DNA of 13,967 nucleotides from Candidatus Hermodarchaeota archaeon. Its GTDB lineage: Archaea > Asgardarchaeota > Hermodarchaeia > Hermodarchaeales > Hermodarchaeaceae. Below are positions 1,571-13,967 of this stretch, piece by piece (positions within the stretch are counted from its first letter, which is position 1; every line of letters begins with the position of its first letter). Where the stretch lies: contig JAEOUH010000021.1 in NCBI GenBank assembly GCA_016839365.1, positions 1 through 13,967 of the forward strand, read 5' to 3'. Position numbers and translations under genes: made by a program. The notes beneath the pieces are model-generated. The model did not search any database. It was not told where the DNA came from and saw only the letters and a program-made list of their open reading frames with translations.

Positions 1571-2161
1571 CTATGTTCCTATTCTTTTAGGTTGTGCAAG
1601 ATTTGATCCCAGCAGAATTTGTCGCAGAACCCCTTGCAAGATTTCGAGGGTGAATGAACCTTGTGTGGCTACCGTTTCAAAAATCTGGGATGTGCCGTTA
1701 AGTCCAAGCGTATTGATGAGTTCAAATCGGCTAATCATAGGCCAAATATCCCGCTTATTTAAGGCAAAGATTACTGGGATTTCATCCCCCAGCCGATCTC
1801 CAAAGAAACCCTTGAGTTCTTCCCAACATCGTTGGTTTTCCTTTACTAAATTTGGATTAGAATCCGCTACAAAGACGATTCCATCAGTTCCTGCAAGAAC
1901 GGTCGAGCGCGTTTCTGCATAATAATCTTGACCAGTTGCTGACCAAATATGAATCTGAATAACCCATTCACCATGTGAAAGCTCAATGGGTCCATAATCA
2001 AAGAACAGGGTTCTACCAGAAGTTGTCTCGATGGATTCTAGCCGAGATAAGATATTAAGACGGGAAAAAAGGGCACGAATACTTTCTGTTTTTCCACTCA
2101 TGGCAGGGCCGTAATAGACGATTTTTGTTTGAATGACTCGTTGGCTCCAATCAATTAGCAC
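1571..2161 (-). CDS. mglA: MglA-family small (Ras-superfamily) GTPase
   Basis: N-terminal IDWSQRVIQTKIVYYGP, G1 GPAMSGKT, switch I GRTLFFD (MglA signature with the intrinsic Arg), G3 SATGQ (MglA TVPGQ), DGIVFVADS, G4 NKRD, G5 TVAT. GTG start with a GGAGG SD. Confidence 0.9.
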   Translation of the reverse strand: MLIDWSQRVIQTKIVYYGPAMSGKTESIRALFSRLNILSRLESIETTSGRTLFFDYGPIELSHGEWVIQIHIWSATGQDYYAETRSTVLAGTDGIVFVADSNPNLVKENQRCWEELKGFFGDRLGDEIPVIFALNKRDIWPMISRFELINTLGLNGTSQIFETVATQGSFTLEILQGVLRQILLGSNLAQPKRIGT

Positions 2162-2176
2162 TCTTTTTCCTCCAGA

Positions 2177-3067
2177 TTAGATTGTCCAGAATCCCTCTAG
2201 TCGATCTCCAAACGCTTGTCCTGTCCCGTCTTGTACAGAGGTCTGGAAATCTTCGCCCCATTCAGCTATAATGAACTCCATCAGGCGGTTTATAGTCGCT
2301 CCTTTGTAATCCACTGCCTGCTGAAGCATCTTATCAGATATTACTGACTTTACTCCAACTCCTTGTAATAACCGAAGTCGTAACAGAATAATCATGACTC
2401 TCCAGGCCGCCTCTACAAACGCCTGGATGTGTTCACGGTAAAGGCTTTGTCGGATACGCTCTTCCTCTTGGTTGAGATCAACCAGGCTCTTTTCAAGCCG
2501 CTCACTTACTTTGCCTTGTGCAGCCCTTTTTAGGATTCTAGTTATTCTTTCAATCTTGGTGCGTGTTTCGGAAGTAACCTTTTCTAGCAATTTGTGTTCA
2601 AAATTCGTTTCAGAAAACGTGCTCGAATCTCCATTAGATTCGATTTTAAGTTTACCTTCACTGAACCGCAGAGTCAATGGAAGAACAGAAGACTTGGCTA
2701 ACGTCTGCTTGATGTCTTCTAGATGAACCTGATCGGTTGCTATTACCCATCCTTTATAATCTGTAATCTGGTTTGAGACAAGTTGCGCCGAAGATGATGG
2801 GGCACGATAAATCATTCGCTCTCCGTTATAGTCACCCTTTTCATGGTGAACCATCTGCTCATGTTCTGAATAGGATACAAAATCTGATCCGAAAACCATC
2901 TCGCGACGATGTGGCACAAGCTGAACCAACGACTCAGCAACCGAATCTACAGATTCGGACAACTCACCATAGATGATTATTGGGTGTCGATCTAATATTG
3001 TACGTAATACGATAGCCAGTTGTTTTCTTCCAAGGGTAAATAGCCCATTGTCCAGAAATGTGCTCAT
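2177..3067 (-). CDS. Uncharacterised protein with a DENN/folliculin-like core and a helical C-terminus
   Basis: 296-aa ORF whose start overlaps the upstream stop (ATGA, 3067-3064). The N-terminal helix-strand-helix-Pro pattern LFTLGRKQLAIVLRTILDRHPIIIYGELSESVDSVAESLVQLVP resembles the cDENN core by eye. The ORF is confident; the fold assignment is inferred. Confidence 0.6.
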   Translation of the reverse strand: MSTFLDNGLFTLGRKQLAIVLRTILDRHPIIIYGELSESVDSVAESLVQLVPHRREMVFGSDFVSYSEHEQMVHHEKGDYNGERMIYRAPSSSAQLVSNQITDYKGWVIATDQVHLEDIKQTLAKSSVLPLTLRFSEGKLKIESNGDSSTFSETNFEHKLLEKVTSETRTKIERITRILKRAAQGKVSERLEKSLVDLNQEEERIRQSLYREHIQAFVEAAWRVMIILLRLRLLQGVGVKSVISDKMLQQAVDYKGATINRLMEFIIAEWGEDFQTSVQDGTGQAFGDRLEGFWTI

Positions 3068-3990
3068 CGTGCAATTGCCTCCAAAAAACCATCCACATCT
3101 ATAGTCGGTTTCTGTGCTGGGGGTGCTTGTTGTAGCACCAATTCAATCTCAGCTATGAAATTTGGAATAATCAATCTCAGCAGACCAAGACGGGTCGAAT
3201 CCTTCTGAATTAAGGTACTAAAAAGGCCTCCCGCTAGCCGGTAGATGAAGTGTTGCCTCGAACCACAATCGCATAGAACCTGAAGAATCTTTGTTCGTTT
3301 GATTAATTGGGCGACTTTTCGAGACGTATCAAATAGAGTATAGGTTAGCGTGGAATCACGAATACGCTTTCCCTCGTTGAATCGCTGTGTCGGAATTAAA
3401 TAGCCTCCTTCAAGACAAACTTCACCTGTTTGAGCAGAAGGCAATGCCTGAAGAAAATCAGTGACAATCGCCGTTATTTGTTGAGCGGCGTTTTCGGTAA
3501 TTGTCATATTCAAAGTACCTGTTGACCAATTCTGCTGTGGTCCATCTCGAACACTAAACGCATTACAGATTTGAGTACGTTCTGCTTTCTCAAAGGATCG
3601 CAATGGCGGAATAAACTGCTCATTCCATAGAACCTCGTCTAAATGAGAAATAACCCGCTCTAATTGCAAAAATAGGGCTCCTAAATTACTTTGGCTTTGG
3701 GTCGTTACTGTAACGAAATAGTTGGCAGCTCGAGGAAGCGTGGCTAATAAGAATTTACTGCGTTCTCCTTCAATAAGCACATATGATAAATCGTCATGGA
3801 GCCTTTGTGCCACCGATAAGATTGCAGCAGCTGAAGATGATAAACCAAAAATCTCATTCTCTGATAACCAAACCCCACTACTAGAAATGGGGTAGCCATC
3901 TCTTTGAACTAATACCGAGTTCTCTACACCAGGAACCGATTTGATATTCTGTAAATGCACATTGAACTGGTCTAACATCCTATAGGACAT
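3064..3990 (-). CDS. Tandem Roadblock/LAMTOR2 (MglB-like) domain protein
   Basis: Domain 1: LQNIKSVPGVENSVLVQRDGYPISS...SSAAAILSVAQRL...VLIEGE...NLGALFLQLERVISHL, a classic roadblock. Domain 2 (about aa 165-285): CLEGGYLI...LFDTSRKVAQ...QVLCDCG...RLGLLRLII, the same layout but diverged. Confidence 0.85.
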   Translation of the reverse strand: MSYRMLDQFNVHLQNIKSVPGVENSVLVQRDGYPISSSGVWLSENEIFGLSSSAAAILSVAQRLHDDLSYVLIEGERSKFLLATLPRAANYFVTVTTQSQSNLGALFLQLERVISHLDEVLWNEQFIPPLRSFEKAERTQICNAFSVRDGPQQNWSTGTLNMTITENAAQQITAIVTDFLQALPSAQTGEVCLEGGYLIPTQRFNEGKRIRDSTLTYTLFDTSRKVAQLIKRTKILQVLCDCGSRQHFIYRLAGGLFSTLIQKDSTRLGLLRLIIPNFIAEIELVLQQAPPAQKPTIDVDGFLEAIAR

Positions 3991-4024
3991 TCTCTATATG
4001 CTCCATAATTTGAACAAGTTTGCT

Positions 4025-4058
4025 CTATAAAAACCAACAAAACTTTGGAAAACGAAAA
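4025..4058 (-). terminator. Oligo-T tract after the tRNA (probable terminator); TTTATA within it may be the TATA box of the roadblock operon
   Basis: Minus strand TTTTCGTTTTCCAAAGTTTTGTTGGTTTTTATAG directly after the CCA. TTTATA lies about 36 nt upstream of ATG 3990. Confidence 0.45.
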
Positions 4059-4174
4059 TGGTGCGGGGGGTGGGATTCGAACCCACGAAGGTCTACACCA
4101 CAGGAGCCTCAGTCCTGCCCCTATAATCAAAACAGGTTAATCCTGTTTTTTAGACCATGCTCGGGTACCCCCGC
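4059..4174 (-). tRNA. tRNA-Leu(GAG) with 28-nt intron (4150-4123) at position 21/22; CCA encoded
   Basis: Minus strand: acceptor GCGGGGG/CCCCCGC + ACCA; anticodon arm CAGGA-CTGAGGC-TCCTG (GAG at 4110-4108); long variable arm GGT-GTAG-ACC; T arm GTGGG-TTCGAAT-CCCAC. Removing 4150-4123 gives an 88-nt tRNA with a normal D arm, CCCGAGCATGGTCTAAGGG. Confidence 0.96.
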
Positions 4175-4485: not shown

Positions 4486-4505
4486 TAGGAGTGACCCTGA
4501 TTGCA

Positions 4506-4673
4506 ATGAAACTAATCACTGTTAATCTACCAGAAGCTTATGTCAATGGGATTGAACGGCTGATTCTCGAAAAACTGTATCCCAATCGAAGTGAAGCTAT
4601 TCGAATAGCCGTAAGGGACTTGTTGAAAAAAGAACTATGGGAGCCGAACATTCCACAACCGAAAGCCAGGTGA
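4506..4673 (+). CDS. cdrS: Ribbon-helix-helix (CopG/Arc/MetJ) regulator, CdrS-like cell division regulator
   Basis: MKLITVNLPE...IERLI...YPNRSEAIRIAVRDLL is the RHH signature. It lies directly upstream of ftsZ, as in the conserved archaeal cdrS-ftsZ2 operon. GGAGTGA SD at 4488-4494 favours ATG 4506. Confidence 0.88.
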   Translation: MKLITVNLPEAYVNGIERLILEKLYPNRSEAIRIAVRDLLKKELWEPNIPQPKAR

Positions 4674-4681
4674 ATGAAAAA

Positions 4682-6010
4682 ATGGAAAGCGGAATATCGA
4701 AGCTAGTTCGTGATGCAACTCAACGCCCAACTAAGACGGTTGCCCGGTATTCACAACCAGGGGCAAGAATTATGGTTGCTGGCATTGGTGGAGGAGGAAA
4801 TAATACGATTAACAGGTTAGTACAAATCGGTATTCAAGGTGCAGAATGTATCGCAGTTAATACCGATCAACAACATCTCGATCATGTACAAGCCCATAAA
4901 AAAATACTCATTGGAAAAACAATCACGAGGGGGCTTGGTACAGGGGGATTTCCCGAATTAGGAGCGGCCGCTGCAGAAGAATCACGTCAAGATCTAACGA
5001 ATCTTTTACGAGGAGTTGATTTGCTATTTATTGCTGCAGGGCTAGGAGGGGGCACCGGAACAGGTGCAGCTCCTGTTATCGCTGAAATTGCGAAGCAGAA
5101 TGGGGCAATTGTAGTGTGTACTGTGACTACACCATTCACCATTGAAGGCGCGAGAATTGACAAGGCTCATCGGGGTCTCCAACGTTTACGGAGATACGCA
5201 GACACAGTTATCGTTATTGATAATAATAAACTACTTGAAATTGCACGAGATTTACCAATAGATGAGGCTTTTAGTGTTGCCGATGAAATTCTTGCAAGTA
5301 TGGTGAAAGGAGTTACCGAAACCATTAGCTTACCTAGCTTGATTAACCTAGACTTTGCAGACGTTCGAAGTGTATTAGCTGGAGGCGGGGTTGCATTAGT
5401 TGGGTTAGGAGAAGCCACGCAATCTGATACTAAGGACTCCGATCGTATTTCAGAGGCTGTGAAGAATTCTCTCCACTCTCCATTACTTGGTGATTTAAGC
5501 GTAAAAGGTGCTACTGGAGCGCTGATTCATGTTATCGGTGGTCCCGATCTCAGCCTTGAAGAAGCGACTCGTGTTGCCGATGTGGTCACTCGCCAAATGA
5601 GACACGACGCAAGGATTATTTGGGGTGCACGAATCATACCAGATTTCGCTGGTTATGTCCGTGTTCTTCTTATTGTTACCGGGTTAGAGGGAAATTCGGC
5701 AGTCTTACCAGGGTTCCGAGGAAACATCGAGATTTTTGAGGATGTTGATTGGAACTCTCTTCAACTTTATCGCTTAGATTCAGCGGTAAGTGATGCTACA
5801 CAGGAAGAAGAGGAACTCATAGGTGCTACGCCTGTATTTCGTTCCTTTGATTCAGTCAAAGCCACCCAAACTCAAGCAGACGCTTCAATCACTCACACCG
5901 ATAACGGAAACATTGACGAGGAACCTTCAATCTCCCTCATTAGTACAAGTGTTTCAGGAACTCAGCCTTTACAGGGGCTTGGACTGAAAAAGATCGAATC
6001 GACTTCCTAA
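4682..6010 (+). CDS. ftsZ: Cell division GTPase FtsZ (FtsZ2-like)
   Basis: GIGGGGNN, NTD, GLGTGGFPELG, tubulin signature GGGTGTG, T7 loop LINLDFAD. The segment VKGVTETISLPSLINLD and the linkage to cdrS point to the FtsZ2 subfamily. AGGTGA SD at 4668-4673 favours ATG 4682 over 4637. Confidence 0.97.
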   Translation: MESGISKLVRDATQRPTKTVARYSQPGARIMVAGIGGGGNNTINRLVQIGIQGAECIAVNTDQQHLDHVQAHKKILIGKTITRGLGTGGFPELGAAAAEESRQDLTNLLRGVDLLFIAAGLGGGTGTGAAPVIAEIAKQNGAIVVCTVTTPFTIEGARIDKAHRGLQRLRRYADTVIVIDNNKLLEIARDLPIDEAFSVADEILASMVKGVTETISLPSLINLDFADVRSVLAGGGVALVGLGEATQSDTKDSDRISEAVKNSLHSPLLGDLSVKGATGALIHVIGGPDLSLEEATRVADVVTRQMRHDARIIWGARIIPDFAGYVRVLLIVTGLEGNSAVLPGFRGNIEIFEDVDWNSLQLYRLDSAVSDATQEEEELIGATPVFRSFDSVKATQTQADASITHTDNGNIDEEPSISLISTSVSGTQPLQGLGLKKIESTS

Positions 6011-6048: not shown

Positions 6049-6264
6049 TTATCCACCAATCCAACCAAGAAATGCTTGTCTTAATTGATCAAGTTGTATA
6101 ATGATAGACTGAAAAAGACCCTGGGACCATCCCATTACATCTAAAATTACGGTAATCAAGATTGTAATGGTCAATATGGCTAATCCTAACAGAAGGCCCT
6201 GTTCGATAAGTGGTGATCCTCTTTTATTCCGAAGAAATTCTTTGATTAGTTTTAGCCTAGTCAT
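6049..6264 (-). CDS. Small Flp-like type IV pilin with class III signal peptide
   Basis: Basic leader ending FLRNKRG|SPLIEQGLLLGLAIL: cleavage after Gly, Glu at +5, then a hydrophobic helix. Mature length 55 aa. Last gene of the ATPase-TadB/C run. Confidence 0.85.
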   Translation of the reverse strand: MTRLKLIKEFLRNKRGSPLIEQGLLLGLAILTITILITVILDVMGWSQGLFQSIIIQLDQLRQAFLGWIGG

Positions 6265-6297
6265 GTCATAGTCACATGAAAGAGTCTCCTCATAGGA

Positions 6298-6305
6298 TAT
6301 TTAAG
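6298..6305 (-). promoter_or_regulatory. TATA box of an internal pilin promoter
   Basis: Minus strand CTTAAATA about 34 nt upstream of the pilin ATG, inside the 49-bp intergenic gap. Confidence 0.5.
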
Positions 6306-6313
6306 CCCCCCAA

Positions 6314-6982
6314 TTACATGAGCACTGTCAATAAATGAGATATGAGTATGAAAGTAGCCCCAAAGGCAACTAGATTGATGAAAAGAGTTCTAATGGGGCC
6401 ATCAACCGTCTTGTTTAGACGATAGCCAGTAATAAGGATAGTAGAAACCGAAGCTACAACAACATAAACTGAAGACGTTGAGGAGAAACCAACAGTACTA
6501 GTCCATCCACTCTGATAGAAAGCGAGTGAAAGTAAAGGCGCAATAGCCGCAATCATACCAATAACAACAGCAGAGACAAATGAAAGGGCAAATACTTTCA
6601 CTCTTTGGCCTCTGACTAAGTTCTGTCGGTTCTTTGTCATTGCATGATTCTTTCTAACTTGCTTTAGAACTTGCAACATTCTATTTCCACCCAATACCGA
6701 GCCTTTTTCGATGAACCGTACAAATAATTCCAACAGGCGAGAATAACGGCTGCTGCCATATGCGATAACTAAATCCGACCAGGCACCATGAAAGGTTTTC
6801 ACTCCATTAGTCACGTCGTTTATCGCCACAAGAAGGTTTTCAGGTGTTTGCTTTCCAAAGTAGAGAAAAGTTCTGACCAAAGCATATTCCGGACTAATTC
6901 CTGAGGCTAGTTCAGTTGAAAGATGAGTGAGAAAATCAAGAAATTGGTCAAATTCAGTTCCTTCTAGCGGCATACCATTCAC
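6314..6982 (-). CDS. TadB/TadC-like (T2SS F family) pilus platform membrane protein
   Basis: FLTHLSTELASGISPEYAL is a GspF-type start, followed by a helical domain and about 3 C-terminal TM segments. Start overlaps the upstream stop by 4 nt. Confidence 0.75.
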   Translation of the reverse strand: MNGMPLEGTEFDQFLDFLTHLSTELASGISPEYALVRTFLYFGKQTPENLLVAINDVTNGVKTFHGAWSDLVIAYGSSRYSRLLELFVRFIEKGSVLGGNRMLQVLKQVRKNHAMTKNRQNLVRGQRVKVFALSFVSAVVIGMIAAIAPLLSLAFYQSGWTSTVGFSSTSSVYVVVASVSTILITGYRLNKTVDGPIRTLFINLVAFGATFILISHLLTVLM

Positions 6983-7764
6983 TCCCCCAACAATATCATT
7001 TCCTCTGGCAAGAGAGCTGACACTATGATCTTAGCAATCACTAGTTGAAAAATTGGTAAAAGGAGAATAAGAGGGTGATTTGCCAAGCCACGTATTGCCA
7101 CACCCAAAATGAAGATAATTGGTACAAACACCAAAACACCTGCAATTACCATCATCCGGCTCTCCCATTGTAATGTACGTCTCTCATACTTCCTTTGCAG
7201 ATCTTCATGAGCATCTAGAATTACTGCTTCAAGATTTGTAGAGGAAGCTTCTACAAACTGGATAAACGTGAGTAGCCCCCTTCGAAGAACTACCGAAGGC
7301 TGGCTGTTAGCGTATCCCCTCAGCAACTGTTCAGGAGCTGTTCCGCAATTCAGGGGTGATAACATATCAGAAAAAGCTGAGGAAACAACTCCATAGCCTC
7401 CCTTAGAGACATACTCTATTGCTTCAAAAACAGATCCCGTAGTAAGAAAAATCGTAGATAATTCCTCAAGAATATGTGGCGTCGCTTTTTCAATTTGCAC
7501 TAATTGCCTATGGTACTTGGATATCGCACCGTTCAAAGTAAATAGACAGCTCATTAGAGCAATTGTAATTCCTAACATTATTGCGCTTGGTAAAGGTAGA
7601 ACCAAATTTAGGAGACAGCTAGATCCAATCAACACTACAAAACCAATAATCACTAATCCGCTTAGGACTTGGCTAGGCTTGATAGAGCGCCGGTAAAGAT
7701 ACTCTATCGCTTCTCCAAACTCAGAAGGCATTAATCGTGTGAAGAAGCGCTTCTTCCCTGGCAC
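6979..7764 (-). CDS. TadB/TadC-like (T2SS F family) pilus platform membrane protein
   Basis: Two N-terminal TMs, a GspF-domain pattern (PHILEELSTIFLTTGSVFEAIEYVSKGGYGVVSSAF...GTAPEQLL) and two C-terminal TMs. Directly downstream of the ATPase. Confidence 0.85.
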   Translation of the reverse strand: MPGKKRFFTRLMPSEFGEAIEYLYRRSIKPSQVLSGLVIIGFVVLIGSSCLLNLVLPLPSAIMLGITIALMSCLFTLNGAISKYHRQLVQIEKATPHILEELSTIFLTTGSVFEAIEYVSKGGYGVVSSAFSDMLSPLNCGTAPEQLLRGYANSQPSVVLRRGLLTFIQFVEASSTNLEAVILDAHEDLQRKYERRTLQWESRMMVIAGVLVFVPIIFILGVAIRGLANHPLILLLPIFQLVIAKIIVSALLPEEMILLGE

Positions 7765-7777
7765 ATATTCGCCAATA

Positions 7778-9850
7778 TTAGCTAGAAAATTGATATAATC
7801 GACGGTTGTCGCCTCCCCTTTTCTCTCGCCCCTTTGTTTTTACTTGAGTGATTTCGGGGCTAATTAGATCCTTTCGTGCATACACCTCATCAAATGCTGC
7901 AACAATTTTGCCCGGATTATATTCCTGATTTGAGACTAGGGTTGTTAATGTATCCCGAAATATTTGTAGCTGCTTTCGGATAACGAGTGGCGTTATCTGC
8001 TGATACCTACAAGTCCTGGCAACGAGCGAAGTAAATAGGTCAGATACGTTCTGTTCAAGCTGACTTGAAGATTTGCTCCATTCAAAGATTGGAGTTAATA
8101 TCGCTTTTTCCGATTCAAACCGAACGTCACAAATCTGGGAAACCTTTCGGATTATCCGGCCCTGAACTACCTCCCTTACCATGTGGACTAGCAAACCAAG
8201 AGACTGAAAACACACCTCAGGTATGTCGTGATGGATCTTCCAACGTAGTAGCAATTCTTCATTTGAGTTCGCATGACATGTCTGGATTCCCTTAATACCT
8301 GCGCTGATGGCGTGAAACATTGCAGCACTATGCTCTGCTGTTTGGATTTCACCTAGAAAAACCCAATCAGGAGATCGATGCAACAACCGAATAATTTCAT
8401 TCGATTTAGTTGATTGAGTTTTTCCATATGAATCGAAGGGGTCAACTCGAAATGTAACCTTATGCCTATCTCCTTCATCTAATGAGATACTTTCCAGAGC
8501 ATCCTCAATCGCGATCTTTCTCCAACTTGGAGGTGCCAGGAGGTTAATTGCATTAGCTAGAGTCGTTTTTCCTGTTGAAGGTTCACCACTTATTGTTATG
8601 TTTATTCGAAGCGTCATACACAGAATCAGAAATGCCGCAGCTGAAAGTGAAATGGTCTTATTAGCGATAAGTTCAGGTATAGTCAGAGTTCGAATTCGGA
8701 TTTTTCTGATATTGAGATGTGGGCCGTCATAAGCAAGAGGTGGGATGTCAATGGCGGCACGAACATGAAATAAAGCTGTCTTTAGTTCCGTCTTAAGAGA
8801 GGGGTTCTGTTCATCAAGTGGTCTTCGGCTTTCCAGGCGAAGACGCGTAATGATATGTGATAGTTCTGACTCAGAAGGTGACAGGTTGGTCTTGCATCGA
8901 CCCCATACAGCATGGTCAAGATAGTATGGGGTTCCTGGTTTATCCAAGTAAATCTCCTGTACATCGTCATCTAAGAGTAAAGGCATGGTCTTTGTTAAAT
9001 TAAGAGTCTGTGCGGTAGCGTATACTGCCAGATTGTCTCGTTCGACATTGGATAACTCTTTGAAATGTGAGGCGAGATATTGCTTGAAGTCACCAATTTT
9101 TTGGTTTATCAAGGCATCAAGGGTTTGAAGTTTAACTTCATCATTGAGAAAATTTTGTTGCTGTAAAAACAGGGTTTGTAGGACTCTAGGTGAAAGGCTC
9201 TCGTTTAGAGAAACGATTGCCTGGTAATATTTTTCTAATGGTTTATTTGAAGATTCGAGCACTCGTATTGTGAATGGGTTCAAATCATATGTATCAAGAA
9301 GGTGATATGGCCCTTCAACTGGTATTGGACTGAAGGAGGTTTTCTCAGCTTTTTGAATTTTTAGATATGCTTCGAGTAAGGTCTTCGAATTAGCTGGCCC
9401 ATCCTCACCTAAGTGGCTTCTAATGATTGACACCAATCTTGTTTTATTCAATGAGGAGAGGAACTCACGTATTGTACGGTTTCGAGTCGGCTCAGAAGTT
9501 GCTTCTAATATTCTGTAAGCTGTGATAGGATCAGTATATAGCTTCCTTTCAATCTCGGGATATTCTCGATTGATTTCTGAAATATTCGCCTCGAATTTCA
9601 TAAGAGTCAAAACATACTCTTTCAGAATATCCACTGATGATCGAGGTAGCAAGATAGAGTGGGTACGGGTTATGAATTTACAGGAGAATGTGCCCTCAAC
9701 AAAAGGTAAAATCTTGAGAAATTGTTGTTGGCAAAAAGGGCTGGAGGAAATTTCACATTTGTCTGCTGCTTGATGGGAACAAATATCACAACTAAACAGT
9801 AGACATTTCGATGAATCTTGATCCTCAATCACTTGGAAAAGGCAAACCAT
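7778..9850 (-). CDS. Type II/IV secretion / pilus assembly ATPase (TadA/CpaF/VirB11/ArlI family)
   Basis: PLLLDDDVQEIY, RAAIDIPPL...LNIRK, Walker A GEPSTGKT, Asp box IEDALE, Walker B WVFLGE, His box TCHA. Long N-terminal extension with a Cys cluster. Confidence 0.93.
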   Translation of the reverse strand: MVCLFQVIEDQDSSKCLLFSCDICSHQAADKCEISSSPFCQQQFLKILPFVEGTFSCKFITRTHSILLPRSSVDILKEYVLTLMKFEANISEINREYPEIERKLYTDPITAYRILEATSEPTRNRTIREFLSSLNKTRLVSIIRSHLGEDGPANSKTLLEAYLKIQKAEKTSFSPIPVEGPYHLLDTYDLNPFTIRVLESSNKPLEKYYQAIVSLNESLSPRVLQTLFLQQQNFLNDEVKLQTLDALINQKIGDFKQYLASHFKELSNVERDNLAVYATAQTLNLTKTMPLLLDDDVQEIYLDKPGTPYYLDHAVWGRCKTNLSPSESELSHIITRLRLESRRPLDEQNPSLKTELKTALFHVRAAIDIPPLAYDGPHLNIRKIRIRTLTIPELIANKTISLSAAAFLILCMTLRINITISGEPSTGKTTLANAINLLAPPSWRKIAIEDALESISLDEGDRHKVTFRVDPFDSYGKTQSTKSNEIIRLLHRSPDWVFLGEIQTAEHSAAMFHAISAGIKGIQTCHANSNEELLLRWKIHHDIPEVCFQSLGLLVHMVREVVQGRIIRKVSQICDVRFESEKAILTPIFEWSKSSSQLEQNVSDLFTSLVARTCRYQQITPLVIRKQLQIFRDTLTTLVSNQEYNPGKIVAAFDEVYARKDLISPEITQVKTKGREKRGGDNRRLYQFSS

Positions 9851-10359: not shown

Positions 10360-10602
10360 GTGATTATCTATCAAATACTAAGAATCGCACTCTGCTCTTG
10401 GCTTCTTCTGTTAATTGTTCAATCTGTGAGCAATGACCTTTCCTGTCTTGTCTTAATTTCTGGTGTAATAATAACGTCAATGCCCTTTGTGCTGTTTCTT
10501 TCATGGCTTGTTGGACCAGCGATTTTTCGTTCTACGTTGCTCTTCACGATGTTTACACTAATCGTAATTGTACTCCACGTAGTTCAATTAGCGATGTGGT
10601 AG
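10360..10602 (+). CDS. Small hypothetical membrane protein (about 3 TM)
   Basis: 80 aa, almost entirely hydrophobic. GTG start 11 nt after the previous stop, with GGGAG just upstream. Fills the gap up to the convergent tfb (15-nt overlap). Confidence 0.5.
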   Translation: MIIYQILRIALCSWLLLLIVQSVSNDLSCLVLISGVIITSMPFVLFLSWLVGPAIFRSTLLFTMFTLIVIVLHVVQLAMW

Positions 10603-11595
10603 CATTTTGAGAATATGCGGTTTTAGCAATTTTGCGTAGTGATCTCGCACACTGTATTCTGCAGCATTCGTTGCCTTGGAAATCAGCCGTTGAGTAAGGG
10701 CTGGTCGACGTTTTCCTAACTTTGCAATCAGAAAATCTGAACTGTAGACGACTGCAACGGCAAAGATGAACGGATTTCTTCCTCCTCGTTCGGAAACGCC
10801 AATTCTACTGAACAACTGATTCGAATACTTAACTAAATCTACCTGGTAAGCTTGAACTGAAAGACCTGCACGACGCAGTCTCAGGCGTATTGTAGGATGG
10901 TTGACGGTCTGTGACACGATACGCTGCAAGTAATCTTCACTTTTTCTCTTGATAGGTGCAAGTGGTATCTTCTTCTTGACCTCCAGGGCTTGACGGATAA
11001 TCGAGCGGCTCGTTACTCGATGCCCAAGCTTCTGAAAGGCTTCTGCGATTTCCTGAAGCGTAATGGGGGCGTTTTCCTTGGATTCTCGGACGGCCAGCAT
11101 TAACCCATAAGCCATGAGAGTGAGATGGCTTGTGATGTCGCTATTCTCGAGCTTCTTGTCCATCTTTTGATAATAATAAGCGGCTTTGTCCTTGATGCTA
11201 TCTGTCAATGAAAGTAAATCGGCTACTCGGTTGAGGGATCTTAGTGCTCGATATGTTGTTTCCCGTTTAGCGATACGCAGACGTAGATTATAATCATACT
11301 TGAGTCTTCGAAACAGTTGCTGCCTTCTTGGGGCTAAAGGTCTACCCGCTTGGTCGTAGAAGAAGCGACTGGCTTGGTAGTCAATGAAACTTCCCAGTCC
11401 ACCTACCATGGCCGATCTTTTTCCCAATGCAACATACGCTTTAGACTGCGAGGAAGAACAATCCTCATCTCTATGCATCTGGTAAGGTGAACTCACTATC
11501 TGCCGTGCCAACACTAGACCGCAGGCGGCGCAAACGTATTCTCCGTTCGTAAGCACAGTGTATCCCGAACATTCATTGCATTGCAGGTTCTCCAT
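10588..11595 (-). CDS. tfb: Transcription initiation factor IIB (TFB) family protein, divergent paralog
   Basis: N-terminal Zn ribbon CNEC...GEYVCAACGLVL, B-linker RRLK, and two cyclin repeats (LNRVADLLSL...AAYYY...ITLQEIA; GRNPFIFAVAVVY...LTQRLIS...EYSVRDHY). Confidence 0.88.
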   Translation of the reverse strand: MENLQCNECSGYTVLTNGEYVCAACGLVLARQIVSSPYQMHRDEDCSSSQSKAYVALGKRSAMVGGLGSFIDYQASRFFYDQAGRPLAPRRQQLFRRLKYDYNLRLRIAKRETTYRALRSLNRVADLLSLTDSIKDKAAYYYQKMDKKLENSDITSHLTLMAYGLMLAVRESKENAPITLQEIAEAFQKLGHRVTSRSIIRQALEVKKKIPLAPIKRKSEDYLQRIVSQTVNHPTIRLRLRRAGLSVQAYQVDLVKYSNQLFSRIGVSERGGRNPFIFAVAVVYSSDFLIAKLGKRRPALTQRLISKATNAAEYSVRDHYAKLLKPHILKMLPHR

Positions 11596-11908: not shown

Positions 11909-12355
11909 ATGTCACAAAGTACAGGGGCTCGACACTTTTTCAAAGAATTAGCCTCTTTGATAGGAGCCACCGTTGTAGTTAGTACCAATACTGGTAAATC
12001 TCTCACAGGAAAGATGCAAGGGTATGATCCCGCCACATTAAGTGTGATATTAGGAGAAGCTCGAGATACAAAAGGAAATCTCTTTCACCGTATTCTAATT
12101 ACTGGGCATACAATACTTGAGCTGGTAAAAACTGAGGATCCTTTTGATTTGAAAGGGTTAGCTGAGCAGTTTGAAGCCCTATTTCCTCCAGGAGAGGTGC
12201 GATTTCTTGAAGACGCCCGAGTCATTGTTGTCCTTAACAAGGTTCGCGTTACCGAGCAAGGCGTAGAAGGCACAGGACCACTCGCTGACAGAATTAGAAA
12301 GGTATACACAAGATTTGTTGAAGAACAGGAAGCTAAAGAACAAGGTGCTACCTAA
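11909..12355 (+). CDS. Lsm/Sm-like RNA-binding protein with C-terminal extension (SmAP3 type)
   Basis: Sm1/Sm2 fold (ELASLIGATVVV...GKSLTGKMQGYD...VILGEA...ILITGHTI) plus an Lsm_C-like domain (VIVVLNKVRVTEQGVEGTGPLADRI). GGAGG SD. Confidence 0.9.
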   Translation: MSQSTGARHFFKELASLIGATVVVSTNTGKSLTGKMQGYDPATLSVILGEARDTKGNLFHRILITGHTILELVKTEDPFDLKGLAEQFEALFPPGEVRFLEDARVIVVLNKVRVTEQGVEGTGPLADRIRKVYTRFVEEQEAKEQGAT

Positions 12356-12370
12356 GAAGTCACGTTCGCA

Positions 12371-13967
12371 ATGATTGAAATCCTACACAAAGATTTGCTT
12401 GCCCGAATTGCGAGGTTTGACACTAAAAGTGGAGTAGTCCATACACCCACCTTCATTCCTGTAGTTCACCCTACAAGAGAGCTAATACCACCGCGAAAAA
12501 TGTTTCAAGAATTCAACTGCCAAGTAATCATCACCAACGCATATCTTCTCTCAAAGGCCAAGTGCGAAGGGAAAGTCCATGACATCCTCGATTTTCCAGG
12601 TTCCATCATGACTGACTCAGGAGCTTACCAACTACTTACCTATGGAGATGTTCAAATTACTCCTAACCAAATAATTCGCTTTCAAGAGGAAATTGAAACC
12701 GATATTGCAGTCATTTTAGATATCCCAACAGGGGGGAATGCAACTTACAGCGAAGCGGAATTCACTGTAGAAGAAACCCTCAAGCGTGCAAATGATCTGT
12801 TTCTAAAAAGATCAAAATCAAAAATCCTATGGGTTGGTCCAATACAGGGAGGCACTTATCCTAACTTAGTCGAAAAATCCGCACGCATAATTAGTCAACT
12901 TGGCTTCTCGATATATGCTATTGGGAGTCCCACTCAACTAATGGAACAATATCAGTTCAATAAGTTAGTTGAATTAGTGCTAACTGCGAAAAGACATTTA
13001 CCATCTAACAAACCGGTTCACCTCTTTGGGGCAGGGCATCCTTTGATTTTCCCCCTCATCGTGGCCTTGGGATGTGACATGTTTGACTCTGCTGCTTATG
13101 CGTTATTCGCTCGACATGATCGCATTCTATCACCTGAAGGCACTTACCGACTAGCAGATATTCAAGATGGCTTCTGCAACTGTGCCACCTGTTCCAGATA
13201 CACGGTTTCTGAAATGAAAAAATTAGAGAAGAACATGCGTGTTCAAGTACTAGCTGAACATAATCTGCGTGTCTGCCAAGATGAGATTTCTCGGATTAAA
13301 CTAGCAATTCGGGAAGGCCGTCTCTGGCGAATGGTTGAAAGTCGGCTCGCAAGCCATCCAGCCTTAGTTGACGCAATGTATAGCTTACAATCATATCAAC
13401 CCTTTTTCGAAAAATTCTCACCTGTCACAAAAAAACGGGCACTCTACATCACTAGCCCTTGGTCTCTTTACCAACCTGAAGTTTACAGACACAAGAAACG
13501 AATGGAGCGGTTTTCGCCTCCTGAACCTGAACGAACCATGCTTCTGCTTTTTTCTGCTCCTCAGAACGGTCCCTATCATTTAGCCAAAGAATATATTCGC
13601 TTCCAAAGCCAATATCACGCCCTTGTAACAGAGTCCTCAGAACCTTTTGATACAGTTTTTGTCTCGTCCATCTTCGGTTTAGTTCCGACTGAAATAACCA
13701 ATCTTTATCCCCTTGCACAAAACTTGGTTCCGCAATCCGATTTGTTCGCAATCGACTCGGCGATTATTGAGCAATTAGGGGATTATCTAGCCAGACTGCA
13801 ACGATACACTAGGATAATCGGAATATTCGGGAAATCGAACAAATGGCAGTCATTCACTCGAAAATGTAGACGATTGCTATCAAAGCTAGGGCGAGACTTT
13901 AGGTTATTTACTACCGATTTCAGTAAGGCGTCTTTGAAATCAATAATCTCGCAGTCTTTCCTCGAAC
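12371..13967 (+). CDS. tgtA: tRNA-guanine(15) transglycosylase (archaeosine TGT), 3' end beyond the window
   Basis: Translated by hand from ATG 12371 with no stop before the window end: MIEILHKDLLARIARF...TPTFIPVV, IITNAY, MTDSGAYQ (catalytic Asp), GPIQGG, HLFGAGHP, GCDMFDSAAY, Zn site CNCATC...EHNL, FGLVP...YPLAQ. Confidence 0.97.
   Translation, partial: MIEILHKDLLARIARFDTKSGVVHTPTFIPVVHPTRELIPPRKMFQEFNCQVIITNAYLLSKAKCEGKVHDILDFPGSIMTDSGAYQLLTYGDVQITPNQIIRFQEEIETDIAVILDIPTGGNATYSEAEFTVEETLKRANDLFLKRSKSKILWVGPIQGGTYPNLVEKSARIISQLGFSIYAIGSPTQLMEQYQFNKLVELVLTAKRHLPSNKPVHLFGAGHPLIFPLIVALGCDMFDSAAYALFARHDRILSPEGTYRLADIQDGFCNCATCSRYTVSEMKKLEKNMRVQVLAEHNLRVCQDEISRIKLAIREGRLWRMVESRLASHPALVDAMYSLQSYQPFFEKFSPVTKKRALYITSPWSLYQPEVYRHKKRMERFSPPEPERTMLLLFSAPQNGPYHLAKEYIRFQSQYHALVTESSEPFDTVFVSSIFGLVPTEITNLYPLAQNLVPQSDLFAIDSAIIEQLGDYLARLQRYTRIIGIFGKSNKWQSFTRKCRRLLSKLGRDFRLFTTDFSKASLKSIISQSFLE

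Follow-up and report, generated by a model that had tools for sequence, protein, structure and literature searches.

In eukaryotes, membrane traffic and nutrient signalling are organised by small GTPases that work with roadblock or longin partners and with regulators of the DENN type. The closest described relative of the locus studied here is an operon that Liu et al. 2020/2021 (bioRxiv, doi 10.1101/2020.10.19.343400, Fig. 5b) predicted in most Asgard archaea, composed of a LAMTOR1-like roadblock protein, a DENN-domain protein and a Rab-like small GTPase distinct from Rag. These authors likened the operon to the folliculin complex together with Ragulator and saw in it a strong candidate guanine nucleotide exchange factor (GEF). 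Here we analysed a window of 13,967 nucleotides (nt), which is one contig (JAEOUH010000021.1) of a 2.2-Mb, 84% complete assembly of the Asgard archaeon Candidatus Hermodarchaeota archaeon obtained from a metagenome. Three consecutive genes of this window encode a predicted tandem roadblock protein (gene 1), a protein best read as a DENN fold (gene 2) and a small GTPase of the MglA type (gene 3). We consider it probable that they form an Asgard roadblock-DENN-small GTPase operon, which encodes a GTPase switch along with its own regulators.

Related work has dealt with the separate components. Tran et al. 2024 (PMC10933270) solved structures of Asgard roadblock proteins and GTPases, and the roadblock-DENN-GTPase operon is not treated there, while a 2025 study (PMC12290439) linked Asgard longins to the longins of eukaryotic GTPase-activating proteins (GAPs). 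Zhang et al. 2012 (PMC3521125) derived the longin domain from MglB-like roadblock domains and found that the core of DENN resembles a P-loop fold but lacks the residues that bind nucleotides. The layout of the window triad, for which a reading made from the sequence alone (hereafter the sequence-only reading) knew of no characterised counterpart, is not new, since Liu et al. had predicted the same operon and compared it with FLCN and Ragulator; it is already known as a comparative-genomics prediction. The triad is one more instance of it, with no essential difference: the genes are adjacent and co-directional, the GTPase is not a Rag, and the arrangement is found in most Asgard lineages. Our additions are small, namely that the GTPase is predicted to be of the MglA type and not 'Rab-like', that the roadblock protein would be a single-chain pseudo-dimer, that the DENN protein appears to be without a longin domain, and that Asgard lineages without the DENN gene retain plain roadblock-GTPase pairs.

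A coupled gene triad retained across Asgard archaea

The open reading frame (ORF) list and direct reading of the sequence reproduced exactly, coordinates included, the three co-directional genes, the ATGA overlap and the 15-nt gap described by the sequence-only reading (Table 1). The overlap of -4 nt between genes 1 and 2 was also found in close relatives and in loci L041-L043. The GGAGG in the spacer between genes 2 and 3 is a putative Shine-Dalgarno-like ribosome-binding motif. We compared the junctions in the 40 related loci for which the whole triad could be located on a single strand. The gene order was the same in 40 of 40, both junctions fell between -4 and +29 nt, and the spacers between genes 2 and 3 measured 2-23 nt.

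The sequence-only reading had made its proposal depend on a neighbourhood survey of other genomes, and this survey bore it out, with the triad present in 17 of 18 sampled genomes of other Asgard families. Of 400 Asgard genomes examined by a profile search, 236 carried the gene 2 family; among the 90 of high quality the number was 67. The roadblock-DENN-GTPase order was kept in most of the 30 best loci. It was also seen on metagenome contigs, with proteins 27-55% identical. When loci were sought with the close alignment, most of the records obtained were from Hermodarchaeota, Promethearchaeota and Thorarchaeota; a single actinobacterial fragment among them was spurious. Triad loci span about a dozen Asgard families, in which the identity of the middle protein goes down to 25-35%. 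Given that the order is identical in all 40 loci, that the junctions are tight and that about a dozen families are involved, the arrangement is more than chance. Taken together, these results show translational coupling within the triad and a gene order that is kept in most Asgard lineages.

The DENN gene was absent from some whole Asgard families, for example from family f7 (0 of 31 genomes). In five near-complete genomes of such families, the closest GTPase (E about 1e-43) was encoded next to a roadblock gene with no DENN gene. Complete reading of two of the five loci showed that one is roadblock-GTPase-roadblock. The plain pairs are consistent with a core of the MglB/MglA type that gained the DENN gene as an addition. 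Separately, we found one DENN-family gene with neither roadblock nor GTPase neighbours (locus L053, in genome G168, 79% complete), while in G169, a congener, the roadblock and DENN genes adjoin. The gene at L053 may be a lone paralogue or may reflect an assembly gap.

Predicted folds and motifs of the three proteins

Residues 3-183 of gene 3 aligned with MglA structures from Thermus (3t12, E 9.1e-29) and Myxococcus (E 1.3e-23) in the PDB, whereas the match to Arf1 reached only E 1.7e-5. Across 33 orthologues, four segments were invariant or nearly so: the P-loop G18-P-A-M-S-G-K24-T, the switch I segment G49-R50-T51 with an intrinsic arginine, the segment S74-A-T-G77-Q78, in which serine replaces the canonical G3 aspartate as threonine does in MglA, and N135-K-x-D138. 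R50, G77 and Q78 were invariant in 33 of 33. Moreover, R50, Q78 and S74-A-T-G77 aligned with the MglA segments ERTLFFD and TVPGQ. The GPxxSGKT P-loop, the intrinsic switch-I arginine, the serine or threonine in place of the G3 aspartate and the catalytic glutamine are all shared with the MglB-MglA systems of Myxococcus xanthus and Thermus thermophilus (3t12, 3t1q, 6izw), and gene 3, like MglA, shares an operon with a roadblock gene upstream on the same strand. Unlike the bacterial systems, the locus has a DENN-fold gene between the roadblock and GTPase genes, and its host is an archaeon. By its motifs, the gene 3 product is an MglA-type GTPase that is predicted to be catalytically competent, with its switch-I arginine, catalytic glutamine and non-aspartate G3.

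Membership of a Rag/Ragulator system was considered for gene 3 and rejected. The protein is a single domain of 196 amino acids (aa) without the C-terminal roadblock domain of Rag, it had no match to Gtr1_RagA, and its best matches were MglA proteins. The likeness to Rag-Ragulator, where LAMTOR heterodimers act with RagA/C, would lie in roadblock domains that serve a small GTPase as its platform.

In gene 1, residues 12-84 matched the Pfam family Robl_LC7 (E 8.4e-7; bit score 29.1, above the family cutoff of 23), and the N-terminal half matched the Asgard roadblock structure 7f8m in the PDB (E 3.5e-7). With a family profile of 37 sequences, positions 5-119 again found 7f8m (4e-6), and positions 170-290 found the roadblock protein 9jue_D (1.4e-8) and CvnB5 (3leq, 2.4e-5); the match of positions 161-297 to MglB was weaker (E 0.03-0.05). 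Profiles of the two halves aligned with each other over 121 columns in hhalign (93% probability, E 2.6e-7). The two domains cover about residues 5-121 and 165-297. These matches indicate two roadblock domains within one chain, which would form a single-chain pseudo-dimer. Unlike MglB, which is a homodimer of single-domain subunits, the gene 1 product is thus predicted to be a fused two-domain chain.

Sequence searches with gene 2 against Pfam, NCBIfam and the PDB gave nothing meaningful. Its family is well populated but entirely 'hypothetical': we counted 64 close clusters, and a search of 1.84 billion proteins gave 76 representatives at E <= 1e-3. A fold predicted from the single sequence had a predicted local distance difference test (pLDDT) score of 39 and was discarded, and all structural work was done with an AlphaFold2 model built on a 52-sequence alignment (pLDDT 87.8; predicted template modelling score, pTM, 0.85). 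This model has an alpha/beta sandwich at about residues 30-145 followed by long helices, with the alpha/beta core beginning at residue 1-30, and so presents, at the level of a predicted fold, the alpha/beta sandwich and helical dDENN part of a DENN module. We compared it exhaustively with 48,161 chains by VIA-align. The best scores were those of DENND10 (Z 12.3), FLCN in the lysosomal complex (12.3) and the crystal structure of the FLCN C-terminal domain (12.2), followed by C9orf72 (10.4), DENND1A (10.1) and SMCR8 (9.8), and DENN-family chains took six of the best eight places. Their alignments comprised about 185-206 residues and covered gene 2 from residue 1 to about 275, including both the alpha/beta and the helical parts. 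The chain ranges that aligned were those of DENN plus dDENN (157-357 in DENND10, 343-558 or 347-558 in FLCN), and the longin part of the eukaryotic chains was not matched by the model in this comparison. Shape matches in the ESM Atlas were Avl9/DENND11 (template modelling score, TM, 0.54) and DENND2D (TM 0.50). Among the protein-language-model neighbours, all named ones belonged to the DENN clan, namely C9orf72-like, Folliculin_C/SMCR8_C (0.92), SPA and DENND11. The commonest weak Pfam match in the family, tied with fvmX5, was Folliculin_C (3 of 52 members, best E 4.8e-4).

Several observations weigh against a DENN protein in the proposed switch, and they raise the possibility that gene 2 encodes a degenerate, nucleotide-free P-loop ATPase of the secretion or archaellum type, which would resemble DENN by convergence or deep ancestry and act as a structural adaptor only. 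The secretion ATPases GspE (2oap, Z 10.4) and FlaI (4ihq, Z 10.0) were interleaved with the DENN matches, and many RecA/AAA+ chains scored Z 7-8. Foldseek against the PDB gave no match to the model at E <= 0.001, all E-values being above 0.009, and the weak hits at ranks 3-4 were DENND1A/B. No DENN-clan sequence model scored above its curated threshold for gene 2 or its family, in which no curated sequence family was reached, and the DENN assignment draws on similarity of predicted fold and of embeddings. Moreover, a 2026 paper described the DENN fold as common across the tree of life. We nevertheless regard the ATPase alternative as quite improbable. DENN chains led the structural comparison, with alignments running through the helical dDENN region, the named language-model neighbours and the Folliculin_C matches pointed the same way, and the profile-based annotation by Liu et al. 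independently arrived at DENN.

We also found no Walker-A or P-loop motif at the turn between beta1 and alpha1 of gene 2, which agrees with the P-loop-like core lacking nucleotide-binding residues that Zhang et al. described for DENN. The gene 2 polypeptide showed no longin/uDENN domain, as its alpha/beta core starts at residue 1-30 of 296. No longer, fused relative (546-2000 aa) turned up, which is weak evidence, and the longer matches from the representative search carried no roadblock or longin Pfam domain. Gene 2 is best read as a longin-less DENN/dDENN protein. At Z 9.8-12.3 its predicted fold resembles the DENN plus dDENN modules of FLCN-FNIP (6nzd, 3v42), C9orf72-SMCR8 (7o2w, 6lt0), DENND1A/B-Rab35 (6ekk, 3tw8) and DENND10 (8p0v), and, like these longin-DENN regulators, it is paired with a partner of the roadblock/longin superfamily and with a small GTPase. 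Unlike them, it has no longin in the same polypeptide and a sequence identity of 8-14%, its client GTPase is of the MglA type and not Rag, Rab or Arf, and the operon encodes no second DENN subunit for a heterodimer. For all three proteins, the labels given by the sequence-only reading held: both halves of gene 1 match roadblock structures and each other; the DENN/folliculin-like call for gene 2 agrees with the model, VIA-align, shape matches and language-model neighbours; and 'MglA' for gene 3 is more precise than the 'Rab-like' of the literature.

Proposed GTPase switch and its possible origin

If the triad acts as a GTPase switch, the tandem roadblock protein would fold as a pseudo-dimer and contact the GTPase in its GTP form at the switch face, in the way that the MglB dimer contacts MglA. 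As a GAP it would speed hydrolysis by bringing two residues of the GTPase itself, Arg50 and Gln78, into position. The DENN protein may dock on this roadblock platform, supplying in trans what eukaryotic longin-DENN proteins hold in cis, and could act as a GEF or as a co-regulator that adjusts nucleotide exchange or GAP activity. By analogy with the characterised systems, GAP and GEF roles are thus suggested for the gene 1 and gene 2 products, respectively. Beside the points already set against the DENN assignment stand three that concern this mechanism. In eukaryotic FLCN and SMCR8, the catalytic contacts come from the longin and not from the DENN domain, which bears on the role of a DENN protein without a longin. 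The predicted roadblock pair of gene 1 is fused and asymmetric, whereas MglB acts as a GAP in the form of a homodimer of single-domain subunits. Experimental work on the roadblock-DENN-GTPase triad was not found in the literature.

The gene 2 product could instead be neither GEF nor co-GAP but an effector, which would bind the GTPase when it is loaded with GTP and pass the signal on. The present evidence does not separate a regulator from an effector, and RomRX, long held to be the MglA GEF, has recently been reinterpreted as an effector (PMC13408092). However, the characterised proteins with DENN modules are GEFs, as DENND1 is for Rab35, or belong to GAP complexes, as in FLCN-FNIP and C9orf72-SMCR8, and the tight translational coupling between the DENN and roadblock genes points to a regulator complex of fixed stoichiometry. 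We therefore think that an effector role is unlikely and retain the regulator within the proposed switch.

The sequence-only reading had also suggested an intermediate to Rag-Ragulator-folliculin systems. The triad might represent one, with a GTPase that is not itself a Rag. A more specific scenario, which we put forward tentatively and hold to be rather improbable as a whole, is that eukaryotic longin-DENN regulators descend from a 'split' precursor of which the triad is a survivor. A DENN-fold protein would have been recruited to an MglB/MglA pair in an Asgard ancestor, where it would have formed a joint GAP/GEF machine in trans with a roadblock pseudo-dimer, and later fusion to a longin/roadblock domain would have given rise to the folliculin, C9orf72 and DENND families. 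In that case, the plain roadblock-GTPase pairs of the DENN-less Asgard lineages would be the older state. An archaeal coupled unit that holds all three protein types offers a compact system for studying how the DENN-GTPase partnership began, and the triad of this window is a clean candidate for biochemistry, as its three short soluble proteins have their motifs intact.

Flanking genes and upstream region

The triad shares the window with fumarase genes, a ribbon-helix-helix (RHH)-ftsZ pair and a pilus-like T2SSE/T2SSF cluster (Table 1), and the whole neighbourhood was retained in two relatives (L002 and L003, 53-56% identity). This setting, and the fact that MglA, the polarity switch of Myxococcus, is the best-matching characterised GTPase, would suit a module that chiefly controls polarity, division or pili and is tied in function to the ftsZ and type-IV-pilus-like genes instead of to trafficking or nutrient sensing. 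However, none of the 18 sampled genomes of other Asgard families had ftsZ next to the triad, and only two (L046, L051) had a T2SSE-like gene in the sequence retrieved around it, while the triad itself was present in 17, indicating that the linkage is local synteny. Such a controller is in our view rather unlikely, and the ftsZ and pilus genes were set aside as parts of the unit, their synteny being limited to close kin.

Table 1. Coordinates of features in the window and, in the last three rows, in other loci
Feature	Position	Strand	Details
Gene 3, MglA-type small GTPase (predicted)	1571-2161	-	196 aa, GTG start
Spacer before gene 3 GTG	2162-2176	-	15 nt, TCTGGAGGAAAAAGA; GGAGG motif, from sequence reading
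Gene 2, DENN + dDENN-fold protein (predicted)	2177-3067	-	296 aa, ATG start
ATGA overlap (stop of gene 1, start of gene 2)	3064-3067	-	direct sequence reading
Gene 1, tandem roadblock protein (predicted)	3064-3990	-	308 aa, ATG start
Upstream region, tRNA-Leu to gene 1	3991-4058	-	68 nt, sequence reading only
TATA-like TTTATA	4026-4031		within the upstream region
tRNA-Leu(GAG) gene	4059-4174	-	116 nt, CCA encoded
Ribbon-helix-helix gene	4491-4673	+	60 aa; Pfam RHH_1, E 1e-5
ftsZ	4637-6010	+	Tubulin + FtsZ_C
Pilus-/archaellum-like cluster	6049-9850	-	71-aa, 222-aa, T2SSF-like 261-aa and 690-aa T2SSE ATPase genes
TFIIB-like gene	10588-11595	-	335 aa, window ORF
Lsm-domain protein with Lsm_C extension	11909-12355	+	window ORF
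Archaeal tRNA-guanine transglycosylase (TGT + DUF5591)	12371-13966	+	runs past window end
DENN-less locus L080	1103-2040	+	one of L080/L076: roadblock (99 aa)-GTPase pair or roadblock-GTPase-roadblock trio
DENN-less locus L076	996-2540	-	one of L080/L076: roadblock (99 aa)-GTPase pair or roadblock-GTPase-roadblock trio
DENN-family gene, locus L053	7037-7933	+	

Other features of the surroundings were noted in their own right. The RHH gene overlaps the start of ftsZ, and this pair, which is divergent from the triad, is also found in the relative L002. The TFIIB-like gene has homologues (34-45% identity) at a distance of about 2-3 kb from the triad in L044, L045, L047, L048, L049 and L054, six genomes that belong to two other Asgard families. 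A second small-GTPase paralogue separates the TFIIB-like gene from the triad in four of these genomes (L047, L048, L049 and L054).

The region between the tRNA-Leu gene and gene 1, which contains the TATA-like element, is likely the operon promoter. The tRNA-Leu(GAG) gene itself, which this region of 68 nt separates from the operon, has a D-arm interrupted by an intron of about 28 nt. It was overlooked by ARAGORN and Rfam on the unmodified sequence, and ARAGORN reported tRNA-Leu(gag) after 27-33 nt had been removed in silico.

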